DNA of 7,728 bases from a virus (IMGVR_UViG_2529293042_000032:1-7728), one strand, 5' to 3'. Numbered from the stretch's first letter, positions 1 through 7,728 are shown. Program-made: numbers and translations. Notes: a model not told the origin generated them from the sequence alone.

Positions 1-168
1 TCAAGCATTATGCAGGCTGTTTCTTTTTATCACCGGCCACAGCAATACCACAATGCCGCAGACCAGCACCCCATCCGCCAGCACCGACATGATTCTGCTG
101 GTGAAATCCACCATCACCACCAGAAACAGCAGGAGTGCAGCCACAGCCAGGCGCAGTTTTACCGTCAC
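1..168 (-). CDS. Small hydrophobic protein, 55 aa, two predicted transmembrane segments, function unknown
   Basis: Minus ORF GTG(168-166) to TGA(3-1): MTVKLRLAVAALLLFLVVMVDFTSRIMSVLADGVLVCGIVVLLWPVIKRNSLHNA. GGAGA Shine-Dalgarno 7 nt upstream. GTG overlaps the upstream TerB-like stop in a GTGA junction. Below the length cutoff of the ORF track. Window edge coincides with its stop codon. Confidence 0.55.
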   Translation of the reverse strand: MTVKLRLAVAALLLFLVVMVDFTSRIMSVLADGVLVCGIVVLLWPVIKRNSLHNA

Positions 169-596
169 AGGTGATTCTCCAGACGAAGACCCAGAACACC
201 GGCAATCTCTTCCAGCACCTTGCGCTCTTCCGGCTCAATTTCGCCGTCTGCCTCCGCAATGGCCACCGCCACATCCAGCACATCTTCCGCTTCACGCGTA
301 TCGTGTTTCACATCCTCAATCTCACGTAACGCCGCACGACGACCAGTTTTAAAGTTCGTATCCAGCTGACCGATAATGGTTGCGCTAATCGCATTAATTT
401 CTGACGTAAACGCGTACAGCGCAGGCTGATTACGCAGTACCTGTTCGATCTTCGCTTTCTCGGATGCCTCACATTCACCATCTGCACAGGCCACCAGGTA
501 TGCGGCGTTAATCACCACCTGTGCCAGATCGCGTTTTTCAAACTTTTTAATTTCCGTTGCCGCTCTGCGGGCTTTTTTACCAAAAATACCAAACAT
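165..596 (-). CDS. TerB-domain (tellurite-resistance TerB-like) protein, 143 aa
   Basis: ATG 596-594 with AGGA SD upstream, stop TGA 167-165. Two ADGE-x-E repeats (ACADGECEASEKAKIE and AEADGEIEPEERKVLEEI) typical of the TerB fold. The 215-aa version in the ORF track would read through the tRNA genes and is rejected. Confidence 0.8.
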   Translation of the reverse strand: MFGIFGKKARRAATEIKKFEKRDLAQVVINAAYLVACADGECEASEKAKIEQVLRNQPALYAFTSEINAISATIIGQLDTNFKTGRRAALREIEDVKHDTREAEDVLDVAVAIAEADGEIEPEERKVLEEIAGVLGLRLENHL

Positions 597-725: not shown

Positions 726-750
726 ACAAAAAAGGTCCGCCGAAGCGAGC
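726..750 (-). terminator. Candidate intrinsic terminator after the tRNA cluster
   Basis: Minus-strand RNA stem GCUCGC/GCGGAC (one mismatch, one G-U) with UUCG tetraloop followed by U6 (plus-strand A728-A733), 15 nt past the tRNA-Arg 3' end. Confidence 0.35.
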
Positions 751-764
751 GTGGAAAATAAGTG

Positions 765-840
765 TGGTGCGTTGTAGTGGGTCGAACCAGTGACCGATTG
801 CTTAGAAGGCAATTGCTCTGTCCGGCTGAGCTAACAACGC
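765..840 (-). tRNA. tRNA-Arg (anticodon UCU), T-arm non-canonical as read
   Basis: 76 nt manual cloverleaf: acceptor GCGTTGT/ACAACGC, D-stem GCTC/GAGC, anticodon stem ATTGC/GCAAT with loop CUUCUAA, CCA encoded. T-loop reads TTCGAC (6 nt, one short) in a CCC run. Confidence 0.65.
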
Positions 841-853
841 AGAATACCGATAA

Positions 854-929
854 TGGACCGCCATCGGGGACTCGCCCCCGCGCAACCAGCTTGTTATGGT
901 GTCGTTCTCTCCTGATGAGCTAATGGCGG
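854..929 (-). tRNA. tRNA-like sequence, degenerate (possible pseudo-tRNA)
   Basis: 76 nt lying between the two clear tRNAs. Perfect 7-bp acceptor stem CCGCCAT/ATGGCGG, T8-A9, GCTC D-stem start, encoded CCA. No convincing anticodon stem-loop; T-arm stem CGGGG/CCCCG with loop GCGAGT lacks TTC. Confidence 0.3.
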
Positions 930-936
930 TTTGTGA

Positions 937-1012
937 TGGTGGCCCTTGCTGGATTTGAACCAGCGGCCTGGCGATTATGAGTCGCTCGCTCTCACCACTG
1001 AGCTAAAGGGCC
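937..1012 (-). tRNA. tRNA with anticodon CAU (Ile2 lysidine-type likely; Met not excluded)
   Basis: 76 nt canonical cloverleaf: acceptor GGCCCTT/AAGGGCC, D-arm GCTC-AGTGGTGA-GAGC, anticodon loop CUCAUAA, T-arm GCTGG-TTCAAAT-CCAGC, CCA encoded. Resembles enterobacterial ileX-type tRNA from memory. Confidence 0.75.
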
Positions 1013-1021
1013 GGGAGCAGA

Positions 1022-1050
1022 ATAATAACGGTCCGTAATTAATTCCGCAA
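1022..1050 (-). promoter_or_regulatory. Candidate sigma70 promoter for the tRNA cluster
   Basis: Minus strand TTGCGG-N17-TATTAT ending about 10 nt upstream of the tRNA 5' end. The -35 is weak and overlaps the upstream terminator U-tract. Confidence 0.25.
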
Positions 1051-1074
1051 TAAAAAACCCGCTCAATGGCGGGT
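1049..1074 (-). terminator. Intrinsic terminator downstream of the Q-like gene (tR'-like)
   Basis: Minus-strand RNA hairpin ACCCGC-CAUUGA-GCGGGU followed by UUUUUAUU, about 80 nt after the Q-like stop codon. Confidence 0.6.
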
Positions 1075-1151
1075 TCTGGTAAAGTTCATGCGTTTGGTTC
1101 GCCTCGCGATACAGCTTTGCGAAGCTTACCGGAATTGAAGCAGTTTTTACG

Positions 1152-1718
1152 TCAAAAAGCAATAACTTTTTTCTCTATACCAAAAGCCATAACCATTGGT
1201 TTGTACAAAATAAATTCTGCCACCTTTAGCCAATGCTCAATGCGTCTTTCACAGGTTCTTAAACTCCATTCCGGATGTGCATCATTCAGCAATTCAGCCA
1301 TTTTGCGCTTAGTCATCCCCCGCCCCACATAACGCTGACTCAGAACATTGAGCAGCCCGGGATAACCTGCCAGTACTTCACCAATAACCCTATCGATTAT
1401 TAACGCCTCTGAATCGGTACAATGTGCCAGCCAGCTTTTTTGATTGCCGTTGATCATATCCCGCAAAAAAGCCTCAAGTTCAGGTTTGTCCAGACCCGCT
1501 TTTTTCATCCTCCGGAGCGCCTCGTTAATTGCCGTTTTTGTCAGCTTTTTAGAGGTCAGTAATTGGTTGAACATATTTCCCGTCTTACCGTCGCCAATAT
1601 ACGACCAACGCCCCCACATACGCAGTTTCCCCTGGATCCAGACACTTTCCAGCGTTTTCAGGCGTAAATGCTCACCGCTTTTGCCTGTAATTTCCGGGTA
1701 TATCATATTTATGCTCAC
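1152..1718 (-). CDS. Putative late-gene antiterminator Q-like protein, 188 aa
   Basis: GTG 1718-1716 (alternative ATG 1706-1704) to TGA 1154-1152. Sits directly after rusA and directly before a strong terminator and the tRNA cluster, the canonical Q slot. Assignment by synteny, not by search. Confidence 0.5.
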   Translation of the reverse strand: MSINMIYPEITGKSGEHLRLKTLESVWIQGKLRMWGRWSYIGDGKTGNMFNQLLTSKKLTKTAINEALRRMKKAGLDKPELEAFLRDMINGNQKSWLAHCTDSEALIIDRVIGEVLAGYPGLLNVLSQRYVGRGMTKRKMAELLNDAHPEWSLRTCERRIEHWLKVAEFILYKPMVMAFGIEKKVIAF

Positions 1719-3459: not shown

Positions 3460-3488
3460 ATTGTAAGGCAATACGCCGGAATGTACAA
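3460..3488 (-). promoter_or_regulatory. Candidate sigma70 promoter (TTGTAC-N17-TACAAT) for the nin-like/Q operon
   Basis: Minus strand -35 TTGTAC (3488-3483) and -10 TACAAT (3465-3460) with 17-nt spacer, between the upstream terminator and the 3410 start. Confidence 0.3.
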
Positions 3489-3514
3489 ACAGAAAACCCG
3501 TCAGTAAGACGGGC
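3486..3514 (-). terminator. Intrinsic terminator after the YgiW-like gene
   Basis: Minus-strand RNA CCCGUC-UUACU-GACGGG followed by UUUUCUGUUUG, 18 nt past the stop at 3534-3532. Confidence 0.55.
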
Positions 3515-3531
3515 TTAACAAGCAGGGGCGG

Positions 3532-3876
3532 TTACTTTAATAATTTCAGTGCCTTTACATCAACTTCAACACTGCTCAGGTCTTTATCAATTTCACCCTC
3601 AATTCTTACTTTGTCTTTCGGAGAAACATTCTGACCGGCCCATATGCTGTCATCGATATCCGTGACAATTGTCCCGCTATTGTCACGAAACTCATAACGT
3701 TCATCACCCACTTTTTTAACGATGCTCCCTTCAAGGATAACCCATGCATCATCCTTCAGTTCTTTTGCCTGCGCTACTGTTGAACGCTCTGCTTCAGGCC
3801 CTTGGAAACCGCCCTGCTGTGCAAAAGCGCCAAAAGACACACCAGAAATAAGTGCTGCAATCAATACCTTTTTCAT
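3532..3876 (-). CDS. YgiW/YdeI (BOF) family OB-fold periplasmic protein with signal peptide, 114 aa
   Basis: ATG 3876-3874 with AGAGGA SD. N-terminal signal MKKVLIAALISGVSFGAFA. Family pattern QGGF.GP...STV.QAK.L.DD..V.L.G.IV.K..D..Y.F.D..G.I..DIDD..W present. Confidence 0.8.
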   Translation of the reverse strand: MKKVLIAALISGVSFGAFAQQGGFQGPEAERSTVAQAKELKDDAWVILEGSIVKKVGDERYEFRDNSGTIVTDIDDSIWAGQNVSPKDKVRIEGEIDKDLSSVEVDVKALKLLK

Positions 3877-3995
3877 TCATAGTCCTCTTTCAGAGATGAA
3901 CATTCAAACAGCATTTTCAGTATGGTAAAGCGCGGGTGCGTTGAGGATGCCTGACACATCAGAGGTGGCGGGAGATTACTCCCCCGCTTGGTCTC

Positions 3996-4151
3996 TTACT
4001 TCTCAGATTCGTAGTCTACGAAGACAGCGACCTCCGTCTGACCGGTTCGGATTCGCACCTCGCAGAGGTCTTTCCTCGTTACCAGTGCCGTCACTATGAC
4101 GGTTAAACAGATGACGATCAGGGCGATTAACATCGCCTTTTGCTGCTTCAT
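3996..4151 (-). CDS. hok: Hok/Gef family membrane toxin, 51 aa
   Basis: MKQQKAMLIALIVICLTVIVTALVTRKDLCEVRIRTGQTEVAVFVDYESEK with AAGGAG SD. Single TM segment followed by LTRKxLCE[IV]R...EVA.F..YES signature. An in-frame upstream ATG at 4208 would give 70 aa. Confidence 0.8.
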   Translation of the reverse strand: MKQQKAMLIALIVICLTVIVTALVTRKDLCEVRIRTGQTEVAVFVDYESEK

Positions 4152-4441
4152 AGCCTGCTTCTCCTTGCCTTTCGGCACGTAAGAGGCTAACCTACATGTG
4201 TTCAGCATGGATTGAGCCTCAGATTAATGTTAAGCGTCTTGCCGGACGCGTAATGTTAACTGGGGCTTTTCTCTATCTGCCGTTGGTGTTCATGCCCGAG
4301 GCAGATAGCCTCAAGCACCCGCAGCAATTCTACTTAACTCTCCTTTTCCCGCAAACCGTTTTTATCTCCAGCGACAAATCGAATACACAACCAGCACCAC
4401 CGCCATTACTGTTCCTACATTTGCGAATGCTTCAGGCCAGG

Positions 4442-4837
4442 TCATTGATTCACCTTCTGCTCAATATTTTTAAGGTCATTTTCCGCATACAGTATTGCAG
4501 TTCTTGCTGCCCGCAACCGTGCTTTGGTGTTCTTTTCTTCACGCTCGAGGCTGGCAACAGATTCTCGGAGCTGATCGTGTCTGTTATGAAGCTGTCTAAT
4601 CTCTCTCACCACAGCCTCACCATCGTTCGCACACCGCAGAACATACTGAAAAGGGTCCACAACACATCCGCACTGCAAGCACAGGATAACGTGATCCTGT
4701 TCATGAACCTCAATGGCCCGATGCTTACAGCTCTGTTGTGTGTAGTTTTTTCTGCCAGTTACTGTAATGTTCAGCAGCTTCTCTTCATCGCGCTTTGGCT
4801 GCACCAGTGTGATGATATTATCGCCTTCATTTTCCAT
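4442..4837 (-). CDS. Cys-rich zinc-ribbon-like protein with C-terminal coiled coil, 131 aa, function unknown
   Basis: ATG 4837-4835 with AGGAGG SD 7 nt upstream; start shares one base with the upstream TGA (TGATG). Cys cluster SCKH..ILCLQCGC..RCAN then heptad-like C-terminus. The 156-aa version in the track lacks an SD and overlaps the upstream gene. Confidence 0.55.
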   Translation of the reverse strand: MENEGDNIITLVQPKRDEEKLLNITVTGRKNYTQQSCKHRAIEVHEQDHVILCLQCGCVVDPFQYVLRCANDGEAVVREIRQLHNRHDQLRESVASLEREEKNTKARLRAARTAILYAENDLKNIEQKVNQ

Positions 4838-5736
4838 CAGTTCACCTCCTGCGGCGGTTCTGGTAGCGGCATCCAGTGTGACGGTTTCCACGACGCACCA
4901 GGAATTATCCACCCATCATTAGCGTCAGGATGCCCCGGGATGTAAGTCGCCCACTTCATTCGCCAGTCACCTTTCCTGTCAAACTCCACGGCAACAAGAA
5001 CGGCTGTTTTGGTATCCGGCATTCGCTCACTACAACTTATCCAACCATCCGGAGTTACCGGAGAGTTGCCAGACAGCGCATTCTGCAACCGTTCCAGCTT
5101 AACGTATTCCTGAACCCTGTTTCCGTCGCACGCCTGAAGCCATTGCTCAGCCTTTTGCGCATCAGTGTGAAAGGCACAAGTGCGACCGTCATCAAATTGC
5201 ATTTCGTAGAGGTTAGCAATCTGTTCAAACTGCGTGTGTGGCAACTTGTAAGTTTGGCTTACGAGTTCGGCTTCCAGTTCTGCTATGCGCTTCTCTGATG
5301 CTTCAAGTAACGCCTGCTTATCGCGTAGCGCTTCTTCCAGTTCAGCAACATGGCATTCACTATCAATAAGGTTGTTCTCTGCTGCTCCCAGCTCAACTCT
5401 CAGCTTCCCAACCGTAAGCGCAATCTCCTCGTTCTCCTGGTCGCGGCGTTTGATGTATTGCTGGTTTCTTTCCTGTTCATCCAGCAGTGCCAGCACGGTA
5501 GCCGGGTTAGCCTCTGCTATGAATTCAGCGTTTGCATAAGCCTGATCATCTGATTCAATCAGGCAGTTAACATGACATTCCGCAATCACGCCACCGGGTT
5601 CTCCTTTCCATTTTTGGCAAACAAAAACTCCTGTTAAATTGCCGTGCTGGTTAACAGATGTATGCCCTACGATGTAGCTTCCTTTAGTTGCTTTCTCTGC
5701 CTTTTCACGCAGTGCCTGATAATTAATTTCGCTCAC
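4837..5736 (-). CDS. Ea22-like N-terminal domain / DUF551-like C-terminal domain protein, 299 aa
   Basis: GTG 5736-5734 (AGAGAGG SD) overlapping the TraR stop in a GTGA junction. N-terminus MSEINYQALREKAEKATKGSY...NPATVLALLDE, central coiled coil, C-terminus DGWISCSERMPD...VLVAV...WMPLPEPP. Assigned from memory. Confidence 0.65.
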   Translation of the reverse strand: MSEINYQALREKAEKATKGSYIVGHTSVNQHGNLTGVFVCQKWKGEPGGVIAECHVNCLIESDDQAYANAEFIAEANPATVLALLDEQERNQQYIKRRDQENEEIALTVGKLRVELGAAENNLIDSECHVAELEEALRDKQALLEASEKRIAELEAELVSQTYKLPHTQFEQIANLYEMQFDDGRTCAFHTDAQKAEQWLQACDGNRVQEYVKLERLQNALSGNSPVTPDGWISCSERMPDTKTAVLVAVEFDRKGDWRMKWATYIPGHPDANDGWIIPGASWKPSHWMPLPEPPQEVN

Positions 5737-5954
5737 TTCGAACCTCTCTGTTTACTGATAAGCTCCAGATCCTCCTGGCAACTTGCACAAGTCCGACAAC
5801 CCTGAACGGCCAGGCGTCTTCGCTCATCTATGGGATCGCCACACTCGCAACAATGAGTAGCAGATGGGGCATTACTATCGGATTTGTATTTTTGCAGGGA
5901 GAGATTGCGCTGCAATTCTTCGATTTCAGCGGCGTTGTCGATGATATCTGCCAT
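5733..5954 (-). CDS. TraR/DksA-family C4 zinc-finger protein, 73 aa
   Basis: ATG 5954-5952 with AGGAAAGGA SD. Two CxxC pairs (CCECGDPI...CRTCASCQ) in the TraR arrangement. Confidence 0.8.
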   Translation of the reverse strand: MADIIDNAAEIEELQRNLSLQKYKSDSNAPSATHCCECGDPIDERRRLAVQGCRTCASCQEDLELISKQRGSK

Positions 5955-5974
5955 TTTCCTTTCCTTCAGGCATG

Positions 5975-5999
5975 AAAAAAGGAGCCGAAGCTCCTTTGG
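5975..5999 (-). terminator. Intrinsic terminator between the AntA-like gene and the traR operon (possibly bidirectional)
   Basis: Plus AAAAAA-GGAGC-CGAA-GCTCC-TTTGGTTTT. On the minus strand the GGAGC/GCUCC stem with UUCG loop is followed by U6. Sits in the 47-nt gap between the 6002 stop and the 5954 start. Confidence 0.5.
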
Positions 6000-6001
6000 T
6001 T

Positions 6002-6631
6002 TTAGAATTCGAATTGCCTTGCCCGCAGGCTTTTCAGCATTGGTCTGGCCCGCTGAACTACGAAACTCGACTGGTCAAGCCGTGCCGCCTCTCTCAGTAG
6101 CACATCTCTGTTCTTCGTCACCATGTAGATGGTCTCAAACGCAATGTCATACAGCTTGTTCGTGTATGAGGAGTTCAGCTCTTTCATGATCGGATACAGG
6201 TGTTTGCTGAGGTCCTGGGCTTTTTCCATCCAGAGTTGCATGTAGCAGAGGAGGATGATTTCCTCGTCTGTGAATTGTTGCTGTGGTTCTGCTTGTGCCG
6301 ACTGCATGTTGCGAAGTTTCTTTTCGCACTCGATGAAGTATCTGCGTATCTGTCGGCCTTTTTCGTTACGCTCTACCATCGCCGTTTCTTTGGCTGTATC
6401 GAGGGTAAGGTGGTAGTCTTTTTTCCCTCGCCCATAACCTATTTCCCGTTTCTGGGAAATAGCTATATAGTCCTGATTTTCAACGAATCCGTACTCTTCA
6501 ATACGTTCTGTAATCCACGATGCAAAGCGTTTACCTACTCCAAGAAAAGTATGTAAATCACGGGCATTAACGAGAAGAGTGGTTTCGTTGGCGATAGTGC
6601 CGTTGAATACGGGGATGCGTTGACTGGTCAT
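6002..6631 (-). CDS. AntA/AntB-type phage antirepressor-like protein, 209 aa
   Basis: ATG 6631-6629 with AGGAGG SD 6 nt upstream. N-terminal LLVNARDLHTFLGVGKRFASWITERIEEYGFVENQDYI and HLTLDTAKETAMVERNEKGRQIRRYFIECEKKL match the AntA-type antirepressor N-domain as I recall it. Confidence 0.65.
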   Translation of the reverse strand: MTSQRIPVFNGTIANETTLLVNARDLHTFLGVGKRFASWITERIEEYGFVENQDYIAISQKREIGYGRGKKDYHLTLDTAKETAMVERNEKGRQIRRYFIECEKKLRNMQSAQAEPQQQFTDEEIILLCYMQLWMEKAQDLSKHLYPIMKELNSSYTNKLYDIAFETIYMVTKNRDVLLREAARLDQSSFVVQRARPMLKSLRARQFEF

Positions 6632-6659
6632 GATGACCTCCTTATTTGTTTAGTTTATA

Positions 6660-6682
6660 ACCGCCAGTTAGTAGCTGGCGGT
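6660..6682. repeat. Perfect 8-bp inverted repeat (ACCGCCAG-N7-CTGGCGGT) 10 nt upstream of the antA SD
   Basis: Read directly: arms 6660-6667 and 6675-6682, loop TTAGTAG. Confidence 0.6.
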
Positions 6683-6849
6683 CGGGTGTCAACTGAGCCA
6701 AATAAGAAGCTCTGGGCATATTCCCCTTGCGGGTGTTGTATTACGCCTCTCCACCCGACCTTTGTACGGATGTAACTATGCCAAATTGCAGGCATAAAAA
6801 AGCCGCAAAGCTATCGGGTGCGGAGACCGCTTATTTGTTCAGTGCGGTC

Positions 6850-6879
6850 AGTATGCGATAGCTCTGGAGGATTTGTCAA
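6850..6879 (-). promoter_or_regulatory. Candidate sigma70 promoter with consensus -35 (TTGACA-N18-CATACT) for the antA transcript
   Basis: Minus strand TTGACA at 6879-6874, CATACT at 6855-6850. Would give a leader of about 210 nt that contains the 6660-6682 palindrome. Confidence 0.3.
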
Positions 6880-6926
6880 TCAGCGGAATATTGATGAACG
6901 GGTAACGGTAAATGCCTCATCCAGAA

Positions 6927-6963
6927 AATTAACGCAAATTCGCATCGCAAACTTGCGTTAATT
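6927..6963. promoter_or_regulatory. Perfect 11-bp inverted repeat AATTAACGCAA-N15-TTGCGTTAATT, operator-like
   Basis: Read directly: arms 6927-6937 and 6953-6963. A third ACGCAA-like half-site (TCGCAAA) lies in the spacer. Confidence 0.45.
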
Positions 6964-6994
6964 ATCTGAAATATCAAGTTAAATCCCCTTAAAT

Positions 6995-7080
6995 GTTTGG
7001 GGCACTATTGGGGCAAAATGTGGTTGTTTGGGGCACTATTGGGGCAAAATGTGGTTGTTTGGGGCATATTTGGGGCAAAA
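6995..7080. repeat. Tandem direct repeat, 31-bp unit x about 2.8, giving six TTGGGGCA motifs
   Basis: Units 6995-7025 and 7026-7056 are identical (GTTTGGGGCACTATTGGGGCAAAATGTGGTT); a variant partial unit runs 7057-7080. Motif starts at 6997, 7008, 7028, 7039, 7059, 7070 (spacing alternates 11 and 20 bp). AAAGAACG x2 follows at 7080-7098. Confidence 0.75.
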
Positions 7081-7186
7081 AAGAACGTATAAAGAACGGT
7101 GTAAAATTGATTTCTTCATGGTCAAAATGAGGTGTAACAGATTGAAAAATATATGCTCTTGGACGATCTTCGGTAATTCTGTGTTT

Positions 7187-7249
7187 TTAATGCTTCATGG
7201 TTTCAATATGTCCGTACATGGAATAATAAAGCACCAGAACTTTAGCCAT
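7187..7249 (-). pseudogene. wrbA: 5' fragment of host wrbA (codons 1-18) truncated by prophage insertion
   Basis: Minus ATG 7249-7247 encodes MAKVLVLYYSMYGHIETM, matching the WrbA N-terminus from memory, then diverges into KH-stop (TAA 7189-7187). Confidence 0.7.
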
Positions 7250-7620
7250 TTCTAACCACTCCTCGTGTTATCTCTATTCCGTAGCGATTCGCTACCACTT
7301 ATTTAAAGATAAGACGTCCTTTTCAGAGTGCAAATTTCACAACCACTTATTTGATTTATAACAACTTTCACAAGCACGCAATTTTGTCGCAAAATGACAC
7401 ATTTTTATCTCATCGCGTTTTTTTAATCATAAGAGCGGCTTATGGATAATTATTGGAGATGATATCTATTCTCGCTAAGAAGCTGTTGCAGGATATTACC
7501 AAACGCGGGTAGAAACACGTCAGTTCACTAAGCTTAGTCCCACGTAGCGAAAATATGGCAGCCGCCATACGCCGCGTTAATTCTAGCAATATGATGTCTA
7601 TACCCAGACGGAGGTCAGTA

Positions 7621-7728
7621 ATGGCAAACCATCGAGGCGGTTCCGGCAATTTTGCAGAAGACCGCGAAAGAGCATCAGAAGCAGGTAAAAAAGGTGGCAA
7701 GAGCAGTCACGGCAAAAGCGACAACTAG
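7621..7728 (+). CDS. ymdF: KGG-repeat general stress protein (YmdF/YciG family), 35 aa, single-repeat form
   Basis: ATG 7621 with GGAGG SD 6 nt upstream, stop TAG 7726-7728: MANHRGGSGNFAEDRERASEAGKKGGKSSHGKSDN. Lies next to wrbA as ymdF does in E. coli K-12. Window edge coincides with its stop codon. Confidence 0.8.
   Translation: MANHRGGSGNFAEDRERASEAGKKGGKSSHGKSDN

Follow-up and report, generated by a model that had tools for sequence, protein, structure and literature searches.

An ileZ-argN-argO tRNA cluster of a lambdoid prophage with a dead argN and an apparent mixture of two natural allele families

Introduction

The stretch of viral DNA analysed here, 7,728 nucleotides long (IMGVR_UViG_2529293042_000032:1-7728; hereafter the window), carries on its minus strand, at positions 765-1012, three consecutive tRNA-shaped units of 76 nt. 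One of the units looks canonical, one impaired and one degenerate. The locus raises two questions: which genes these units represent, and whether the peculiarities of the last two belong to the organism or to the assembled sequence.

The ileZ-argN-argO cluster of Stx phages, and the idea that it supplies tRNAs for rare codons, have been known since the 933W genome. In the 933W record (AF125520), ileZ is annotated as 'codon recognized: AUA', argN as 'CGH; CGG?' and argO as 'AGA; AGG?', and the elements follow each other in the order Q, pR', qut, two terminators, a putative promoter pT, the tRNAs, a terminator and stxAB. The three tRNAs have likewise been described adjoining stx2a (PMC7946995). 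In the literature searched, the gene names ileZ, argN and argO returned nothing relevant, and two papers on Stx phages made no mention of these tRNAs.

Results

The block is the tRNA cluster of Stx-type lambdoid phages

ARAGORN called two tRNA genes in the block, one with a CAU anticodon (937-1012) and one Arg-UCU gene (765-840), and none at 854-929. Covariance searches were run with the Rfam tRNA model RF00005, which has a cut-off of 29 bits, and permissive thresholds were used for the middle unit; two units scored above the cut-off and one below. The units and their neighbours, with the evidence for each, are as follows.

1-168, minus strand: DUF3927 gene (Pfam DUF3927, 4.3e-17)
165-596, minus strand: TerB-family gene, in the stx slot (Pfam TerB, 1.2e-11)
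728-752, minus strand: homolog of the 933W 'terminator upstream of the stx genes' (933W alignment)
765-840, minus strand: argO-type tRNA-Arg(UCU), 76 nt, with A73 (ARAGORN; Rfam, 56.6 bits)
841-853, minus strand: spacer TTATCGGTATTCT, 13 nt (sequence; common to many clusters)
854-929, minus strand: degenerate argN-derived unit, 76 nt (Rfam, 18.8 bits; no ARAGORN call; alignments to argN and to the type A relic described below)
930-936, minus strand: spacer TCACAAA, 7 nt (sequence; the variant typical of type A clusters)
937-1012, minus strand: ileZ-type tRNA, anticodon CAU, 76 nt (ARAGORN; Rfam, 72.5 bits)
1022-1050, minus strand: putative pT homolog, TTGCGG-17 nt-TATTAT (aligns to the 933W 'pT; putative tRNA promoter')
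1052-1077, minus strand: terminator-like 9-bp hairpin with a U-run, at the tR' position (-13.1 kcal/mol, z = -2.77)
1152-1718, minus strand: Q-like late antiterminator gene (Pfam DUF1133, 3.7e-105; Phage_antitermQ, 5.9e-08)

When the whole block was aligned pairwise to positions 21039-21439 of AF125520, we obtained 90% column identity over 400 nt with the three units collinear, and the alignment took in the pT region and the terminator that follows argO. Such a full-length alignment shows that the tRNA block is no chance pattern. Moreover, since the 933W record names the genes and the window aligns with it, the block can be identified as the ileZ-argN-argO cluster of Stx-type lambdoid phages, as the original prediction had proposed from three units following a Q terminator; indeed, a Q-like gene and a hairpin lie upstream. 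The window thus almost certainly holds an ordinary ileZ-argN-argO cluster of a lambdoid prophage, with a dead argN.

With 933W and other Stx1 and Stx2 phages, the window shares the gene order, the short spacers and the site between the segment of Q, pR', qut and terminators and the stx slot, and its ileZ and argO differ very little in sequence from the Stx2a-phage genes. It differs from 933W in four respects: argN has neither the UCG anticodon arm nor the TTC of the T-loop; argO, whose T-loop is 6 nt long, has a C/C mismatch and A73; genes for TerB and DUF3927 stand in place of stxAB; and the terminator after argO is weak. Prophages of O157:H7 and of E. coli E2863 have a matching layout, with TerB and DUF3927 in the stx slot, and in these PGAP annotates tRNA-Ile and tRNA-Arg.

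The Q-like gene is called in the source contig with a start at 1706 (184 aa), and many E. coli prophages encode exactly this protein, as judged from longest-contig blocks of the gene index. The hairpin at 1052-1077 is weakly matched by the Rfam model Trp_leader in its terminator half (E = 0.031), and a consensus promoter/terminator scan of 600-1250 called nothing, this hairpin included. Its alignment to 933W suggests that the element at 1022-1050 is a homolog of the putative tRNA promoter pT.

The surroundings of the cluster vary among related prophages. In all other loci listed with the exact Q-like protein (L001, 1548-2594; L134-L143, 3280-4326), a moron of about 1.2 kb, composed of a 65-aa ORF and an AraC-type HTH gene, lies between Q and ileZ; the window is without the moron and has an E2863-type terminator segment instead. 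At the 5' end of the TerB gene (573-578), otherwise near-identical prophages carry a poly-A run of 6 or 7. With six (window, E2863), the ATG gives a product of 143 aa; with seven, the ATG frame apparently stops early, and the 142-aa protein annotated by PGAP apparently starts at a TTG three bases downstream. In relatives, STnc100 and the anti-sRNA AgvB, the latter with a weak match to AsxR, lie just past the point where the window and its contig end, at 2541-2795 of L125 (the E2863 prophage, downstream of DUF3927) and at 2039-2211 of L127.

ileZ is intact and rare codons are enriched in the window

In the window copy of the cluster, ileZ alone is clearly intact. The CAU tRNA had been predicted to fold canonically, and both the ARAGORN call and the Rfam score agree: the unit forms a canonical cloverleaf with a 7-nt T-loop, in which the sole mismatch, A27/C43, is common to all copies. 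ARAGORN labels this tRNA Met by its anticodon; PGAP calls the identical sequence of NE92 tRNA-Ile. On the annotations of NE92 and 933W, the gene is probably a tRNA-Ile2, predicted to read AUA after lysidine modification.

In the ORFs of the window, the rare codons ATA, AGA and AGG reach 12.2, 11.4 and 6.5 per 1000, respectively. The average usage of these three codons in E. coli is several-fold below these values. This enrichment fits the usual view that the tRNAs support translation of prophage genes. In an E. coli K-12 host, the corresponding rare-codon genes are ileX and ileY (tRNA-Ile2, k2CAU) and argU (tRNA-Arg UCU). These have the same anticodons as the phage genes and, likened in this way, presumably the same decoding of AUA and of AGA/AGG; we take the phage genes to be paralogs distinct from ileX, ileY and argU, grouped in the late operon.

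The 933W annotation, together with general knowledge, suggests how the cluster may work. The late transcript would yield the tRNAs once Q overrides the terminator, pT may act as a second source with its own promoter activity, and host tRNA-processing enzymes would excise the tRNAs from the transcript. The cluster would then supply decoders of codons that are rare in E. coli and enriched in prophage genes, namely AUA and AGA/AGG, and intact clusters would also decode CGA/CGG.

The middle unit is a dead argN and resembles a widespread relic

The middle unit scores well under the Rfam cut-off (E = 0.24). It keeps all seven pairs of the acceptor stem (CCGCCAT/ATGGCGG), the five T-stem pairs and the 3' CCA, its T-loop has 6 nt (GCGAGT), and the would-be anticodon arm, ACACC-ATAACAA-GCTGG, makes three of five pairs. 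The prediction of a unit with preserved acceptor stem and CCA and with no working anticodon arm therefore stands, on the missing ARAGORN call and the Rfam score. It had also been expected that this unit should carry a CCU anticodon reading AGG, and this part has to be abandoned: ARAGORN identifies the canonical middle gene, argN, as tRNA-Arg(UCG), an anticodon that the window unit lacks, and no CCU is to be expected because argN is annotated for CGN codons and AGG is listed, marked by a query, under argO. Taking the window unit itself as a CCU tRNA was rejected as well; the loop AUAACAA could read AAC, but the stem is broken.

With the ileZ 3' end as anchor, we gathered 128 clusters, the window included, from E. 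coli genomes and IMG/VR. The middle position was occupied as follows.

68 of 128 clusters: canonical argN (UCG)
32 of 128 clusters: an 80-nt degenerate form, here called type A, with GACAC(G/C)ATAACAGGGTTGTTGGTG and the T-loop GCGGGT
19 of 128 clusters: a Lys-UUU type
3 of 128 clusters: an argN::argO fusion
3 of 128 clusters: a unit with the anticodon arm deleted
1 of 128 clusters: a unit with the anticodon point-changed to UCU
2 of 128 clusters: the window itself, and locus L022 with a different tRNA array

Among 5,426 complete E. coli genomes, type A occurs over its full length at an identity of at least 95% in about 1,600 (~30%) and at an identity of at least 99% in 1,276; it never receives a tRNA annotation from PGAP. 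Its carriers are non-Stx lambdoid prophages, for example that of O157:H7 strain 4276, that of E. coli E2863 and phage mEp460. We considered whether type A might be a class II tRNA or a Leu-UAA tRNA and rejected both, as it has neither U33 nor a proper stem.

The window unit has in common with type A the altered 5' anticodon stem and loop (ACACC ATAACA, within a derived segment ACAC(C/G)ATAACA) and the shortened T-loop that lacks TTC (6 nt, GCG(A/G)GT), together with the TCACAAA spacer, the CCA and an unbroken acceptor stem. Type A is longer (80 nt): its D region has three additional bases, its 3' stem is altered (GGGTTGT) and it contains one more G. Of the sequence that defines type A, the window unit carries just the ACACCATAACA segment and the GCG-GT loop; its D region, 3' stem half and variable loop show the canonical argN states. 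The unit is thus a dead argN that derives from a very common natural dead allele, and it reads as a probable hybrid or intermediate of type A and canonical argN.

A degenerate middle member is in itself ordinary. This follows from the frequency of type A; from a natural recombinant in an Stx2e prophage, in which the 5' half of type A is joined to a canonical T-arm and which is annotated tRNA-OTHER; and from stx2i prophages, in which 'tRNA-pseudo' and 'tRNA-XXX' variants of the Ile-Arg-Arg array were reported in a 2026 paper (PMC13641118). Another natural recombinant in complete genomes combines a canonical 5' half with a type A-like T-loop.

The slot after ileZ is very labile in the IMG/VR loci (e.g. 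L003, L022, L023, L032, L016). Its variants comprise Lys(UUU)-Thr(UGU)-Gly(UCC) arrays, an Arg(CCG) variant, argN with a UCU anticodon, argN::argO fusions joined at a shared anticodon-loop CCTTC, and units without an anticodon arm.

The preserved parts of the middle unit could also mean that it, and type A with it, is maintained as a non-decoding tRNA-like RNA, kept for its acceptor/T-arm minihelix and CCA. Such a putative RNA could mark the late transcript for processing by RNase P or RNase E, or, as a decoy or sponge, could draw off tRNA-binding enzymes or tRNA-targeting nucleases. In keeping with this, acceptor stem, T-stem and CCA are intact in both the window and type A, the changes cluster in the anticodon arm and the T-loop, type A is conserved at the 99% level in the 1,276 complete genomes given above, and it can fold in a cloverleaf-like manner with a new 7-bp hairpin replacing the anticodon arm. 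When we looked for selection on type A, the whole ileZ-to-argO block was near-invariant, spacers included, and its flanks were mosaic, so that the block offers no neutral comparator inside. The high identity is what would be expected of recently spread prophage DNA, the short spacers being equally conserved. Moreover, the middle-unit variants fold with ordinary minimum free energies (z = -1.3 to -1.9), although unmodified tRNAs do not fold to cloverleaves anyway; type A variants break the acceptor stem (ATGACGG) and carry T-loop indels with no compensation; the slot has been lost in many independent ways; and the T-loop is without the conserved TTC that the tRNA elbow needs. We therefore regard a maintained tRNA-like RNA as very improbable, and a dead argN remains the preferred reading of the middle unit.

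The argO T-arm combines two compensated alleles

The argO unit scores above the Rfam cut-off, at 56.6 bits as against 63-72 bits in its relatives, and Rfam flags one deleted T-loop position, in agreement with the 6-nt T-loop that had been noticed at the outset, as well as a non-standard T-stem pair. Its T-arm, ACTGG TTCGAC CCACT, also contains a C50/C64 mismatch that had been overlooked. The T-arm hairpin is weakened to -1.2 kcal/mol, compared with -5.0 to -5.6 in relatives, and the cloverleaf fold to -15.8 compared with -22.0. Among about 85 loci, this argO allele is unique.

The original prediction had placed the missing base in a CCC run, as a lost C. The loop is indeed one base short; the absent base is more probably an A or T at position 59/60 than a C, as the T-loops of related alleles read TTCGAAT, TTCGAAC or TTCGACT.

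Natural argO T-arms come in two mutually compensated forms, ACTGG TTCGAAC CCAGT with A73 and AGTGG TTCGACT CCACT with G73. When these parental arms are aligned as ACTGGTTCGAAC-CCAGT and AGTGGTTCGA-CTCCACT, every column of the window arm corresponds to one parental state. The window T-arm is an exact column-wise mix of the two, with four informative columns alternating within 16 nt, and this alternation accounts for the C/C mismatch as well as for the 6-nt loop.

The whole cluster alternates between two allele families

The pattern seen in the argO T-arm extends over the cluster. In a three-way alignment of the window with allele families P1 (O157-4276) and P2 (E2863), the sequence upstream of ileZ is P2 and that downstream of argO is P1, and both flanks are clean and unmixed. 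Inside the cluster, the window alternates between P1 and P2 about 16 times within about 240 nt, with 0-2 private bases. Consistent with this, exact-match tiling from other alleles requires 20 segments for the window, against a median of 3-4 for other alleles. All features peculiar to the window copy are thus a column-by-column mix of the states of two natural allele families. The hybrid features are the middle unit, the pairing of argO C50 from one allele with C64 from its compensated counterpart, and the 6-nt T-loop.

The combination was found nowhere else. The window middle unit is unique among the surveyed clusters; exact-pattern scans for the argO and middle-unit signatures gave no hit in IMG/VR or in JGI metagenomes, and the argO signature was absent from GTDB representative genomes. 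Two matches to the middle-unit signature, in GTDB Prevotella and Anaerolinea MAGs, were discarded as chance 20-mer matches with no tRNA cluster. Over the cluster, the closest complete E. coli genome is 95.1% identical.

The terminator homolog that follows argO (728-752) was also considered as a candidate for hybrid breakage. Its hairpin has an energy of -4.2 kcal/mol, compared with -14.6 in E2863 and -14.8 in 933W; the natural NE92 allele reaches -4.4. We rejected this candidate because the natural P1 allele is equally weak.

The cluster lies near the end of a draft contig with private indels

The window is 100% identical to the draft contig AIFG01000019.1 (GCA_000249295.2), and its position 1 is contig position 139, which places the tRNA cluster about 0.9-1.15 kb from the contig end. 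In O157-type genomes, the cluster is present in up to 13 copies per genome.

Between 1816 and 3633 (about 1.8 kb), the window shows zero substitutions and two 1-nt indels relative to an O157:H7 prophage. The first, TTT to TT at 1929, frameshifts rusA, and the second, C to CC at 2293, frameshifts a DUF968 gene; neither occurs in any of 426 E. coli records at least 99% identical. In the gene index, the frameshifted RusA product (1906-2073) and the exact TerB protein of the window are each found in one contig, AIFG01000019.1. The region 3485-7728 is 99.9% identical to the rutG-adjacent prophage remnant of EDL933, with no indels over 4.2 kb, which indicates that the assembly is not error-prone everywhere.

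The background switches cleanly at 3562-3634, inside the BOF/YgiW gene (3532-3876), between the rutG-adjacent remnant (EDL933-like) and a different O157 prophage type. Gene-index neighbourhoods of the BOF and Q-like proteins were read as longest-contig blocks. In all other genomes listed or grouped with those listed, the exact BOF protein adjoins a giant LPD38/MuF gene at the rutG locus (10 places and 19 similar ones, of 35 contigs read), and none of these genomes has BOF next to DUF968-rusA-Q-tRNA.

Further elements were noted in this half of the window. A hok/sok toxin-antitoxin module occupies 3996-4320 on the minus strand (Rfam sok, 113.5 bits at 4146-4320; Hok/Gef ORF at 3996-4208). A match to Rfam sRNA-Xcc1 (69.1 bits, cut-off 53) lies at 6672-6760 on the minus strand, just upstream of an Ant antirepressor gene (6002-6631). 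Finally, a tandem repeat of 31 nt (TGTTTGGGGCACTATTGGGGCAAAATGTGGT; 2.8 copies, 96% matches) at 6994-7080, near the boundary between prophage and rutG, could be an iteron or an operator-like array.

The indels at 1929 and 2293 bear on the simplest account of the argO lesion, that the T-loop deletion alone is a homopolymer base-calling error in an otherwise correct cluster. Both are private 1-nt changes at short runs and count in its favour. With one base put back, however, the C50/C64 mismatch and the hybrid middle unit would still be there; the CCCC run implied by repair with a C occurs in no related allele; and the deletion falls exactly where the parental loops differ (AAC versus ACT), which better fits a mixed consensus. 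We thus consider an isolated base-calling error unlikely.

The window-specific lesions of the cluster would instead probably reflect an assembly consensus in which two paralogous clusters were collapsed or merged into a chimera. The lesions are confined to a site near the end of one draft contig that bears other signs of repeat-induced error, namely private errors and an unprecedented junction, and the pattern is too fine for ordinary recombination, with only parental states and with compensated pairs broken. Among the observations that argue against an artefact are the clean, unmixed flanks of the cluster and the natural occurrence, in E2863, of an arrangement in which Q is directly followed by terminator and tRNAs.

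The main competing account is real recombination or gene conversion between paralogous clusters, canonical argN by type A, in one polylysogenic genome, with patchy mismatch repair leaving the mosaic. Natural intra-argN recombinants in closed genomes make a real recombinant plausible, and the up to 13 cluster copies of O157-type genomes provide ample substrate. Moreover, all states in the window are natural allele states, and the middle gene has died in independent ways, by fusion, by deletion and as type A, which shows that selection on the slot is relaxed. The host prophage would be decaying, as its frameshifted rusA and DUF968 genes suggest, and so would tolerate a broken argO T-arm and a dead argN; such frameshifts are typical of cryptic prophages. 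If real, the window could, with very low probability, preserve a true evolutionary intermediate of the compensated argO T-stem alleles, from C-G through C/C to G-C. The scale of the mosaic speaks against such an origin: about 16 switches in about 240 nt, with four alternating informative columns in the 16-nt T-arm, are far finer than normal recombination tracts. The alleles, the TerB variant and the RusA frameshift are absent from all collections searched, although E. coli is heavily sequenced. Two indels with zero substitutions in 1.8 kb make an unusual mutation spectrum, a large chromosomal rearrangement, absent from the other genomes read, would be needed to explain the BOF junction, and the cluster sits about 1 kb from the contig end. 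We hold gene conversion to be the less probable account, and a consensus of two paralogous clusters remains the reading that we favour for the window-specific lesions.

Discussion

For biology the finding matters little: the cluster is a known one and dead middle genes are commonplace in it. Neither the 'impaired' argO nor the precise form of the middle unit should be relied on without read-level confirmation. The lesson for data quality is that multi-copy prophage tRNA clusters at draft contig ends can emerge as column-wise hybrids of paralogs, and that these hybrids, through their broken compensated pairs and shortened loops, look like 'impaired' tRNAs. Annotators may note that a conserved tRNA-shaped argN relic goes unannotated in about 30% of complete E. 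coli genomes.
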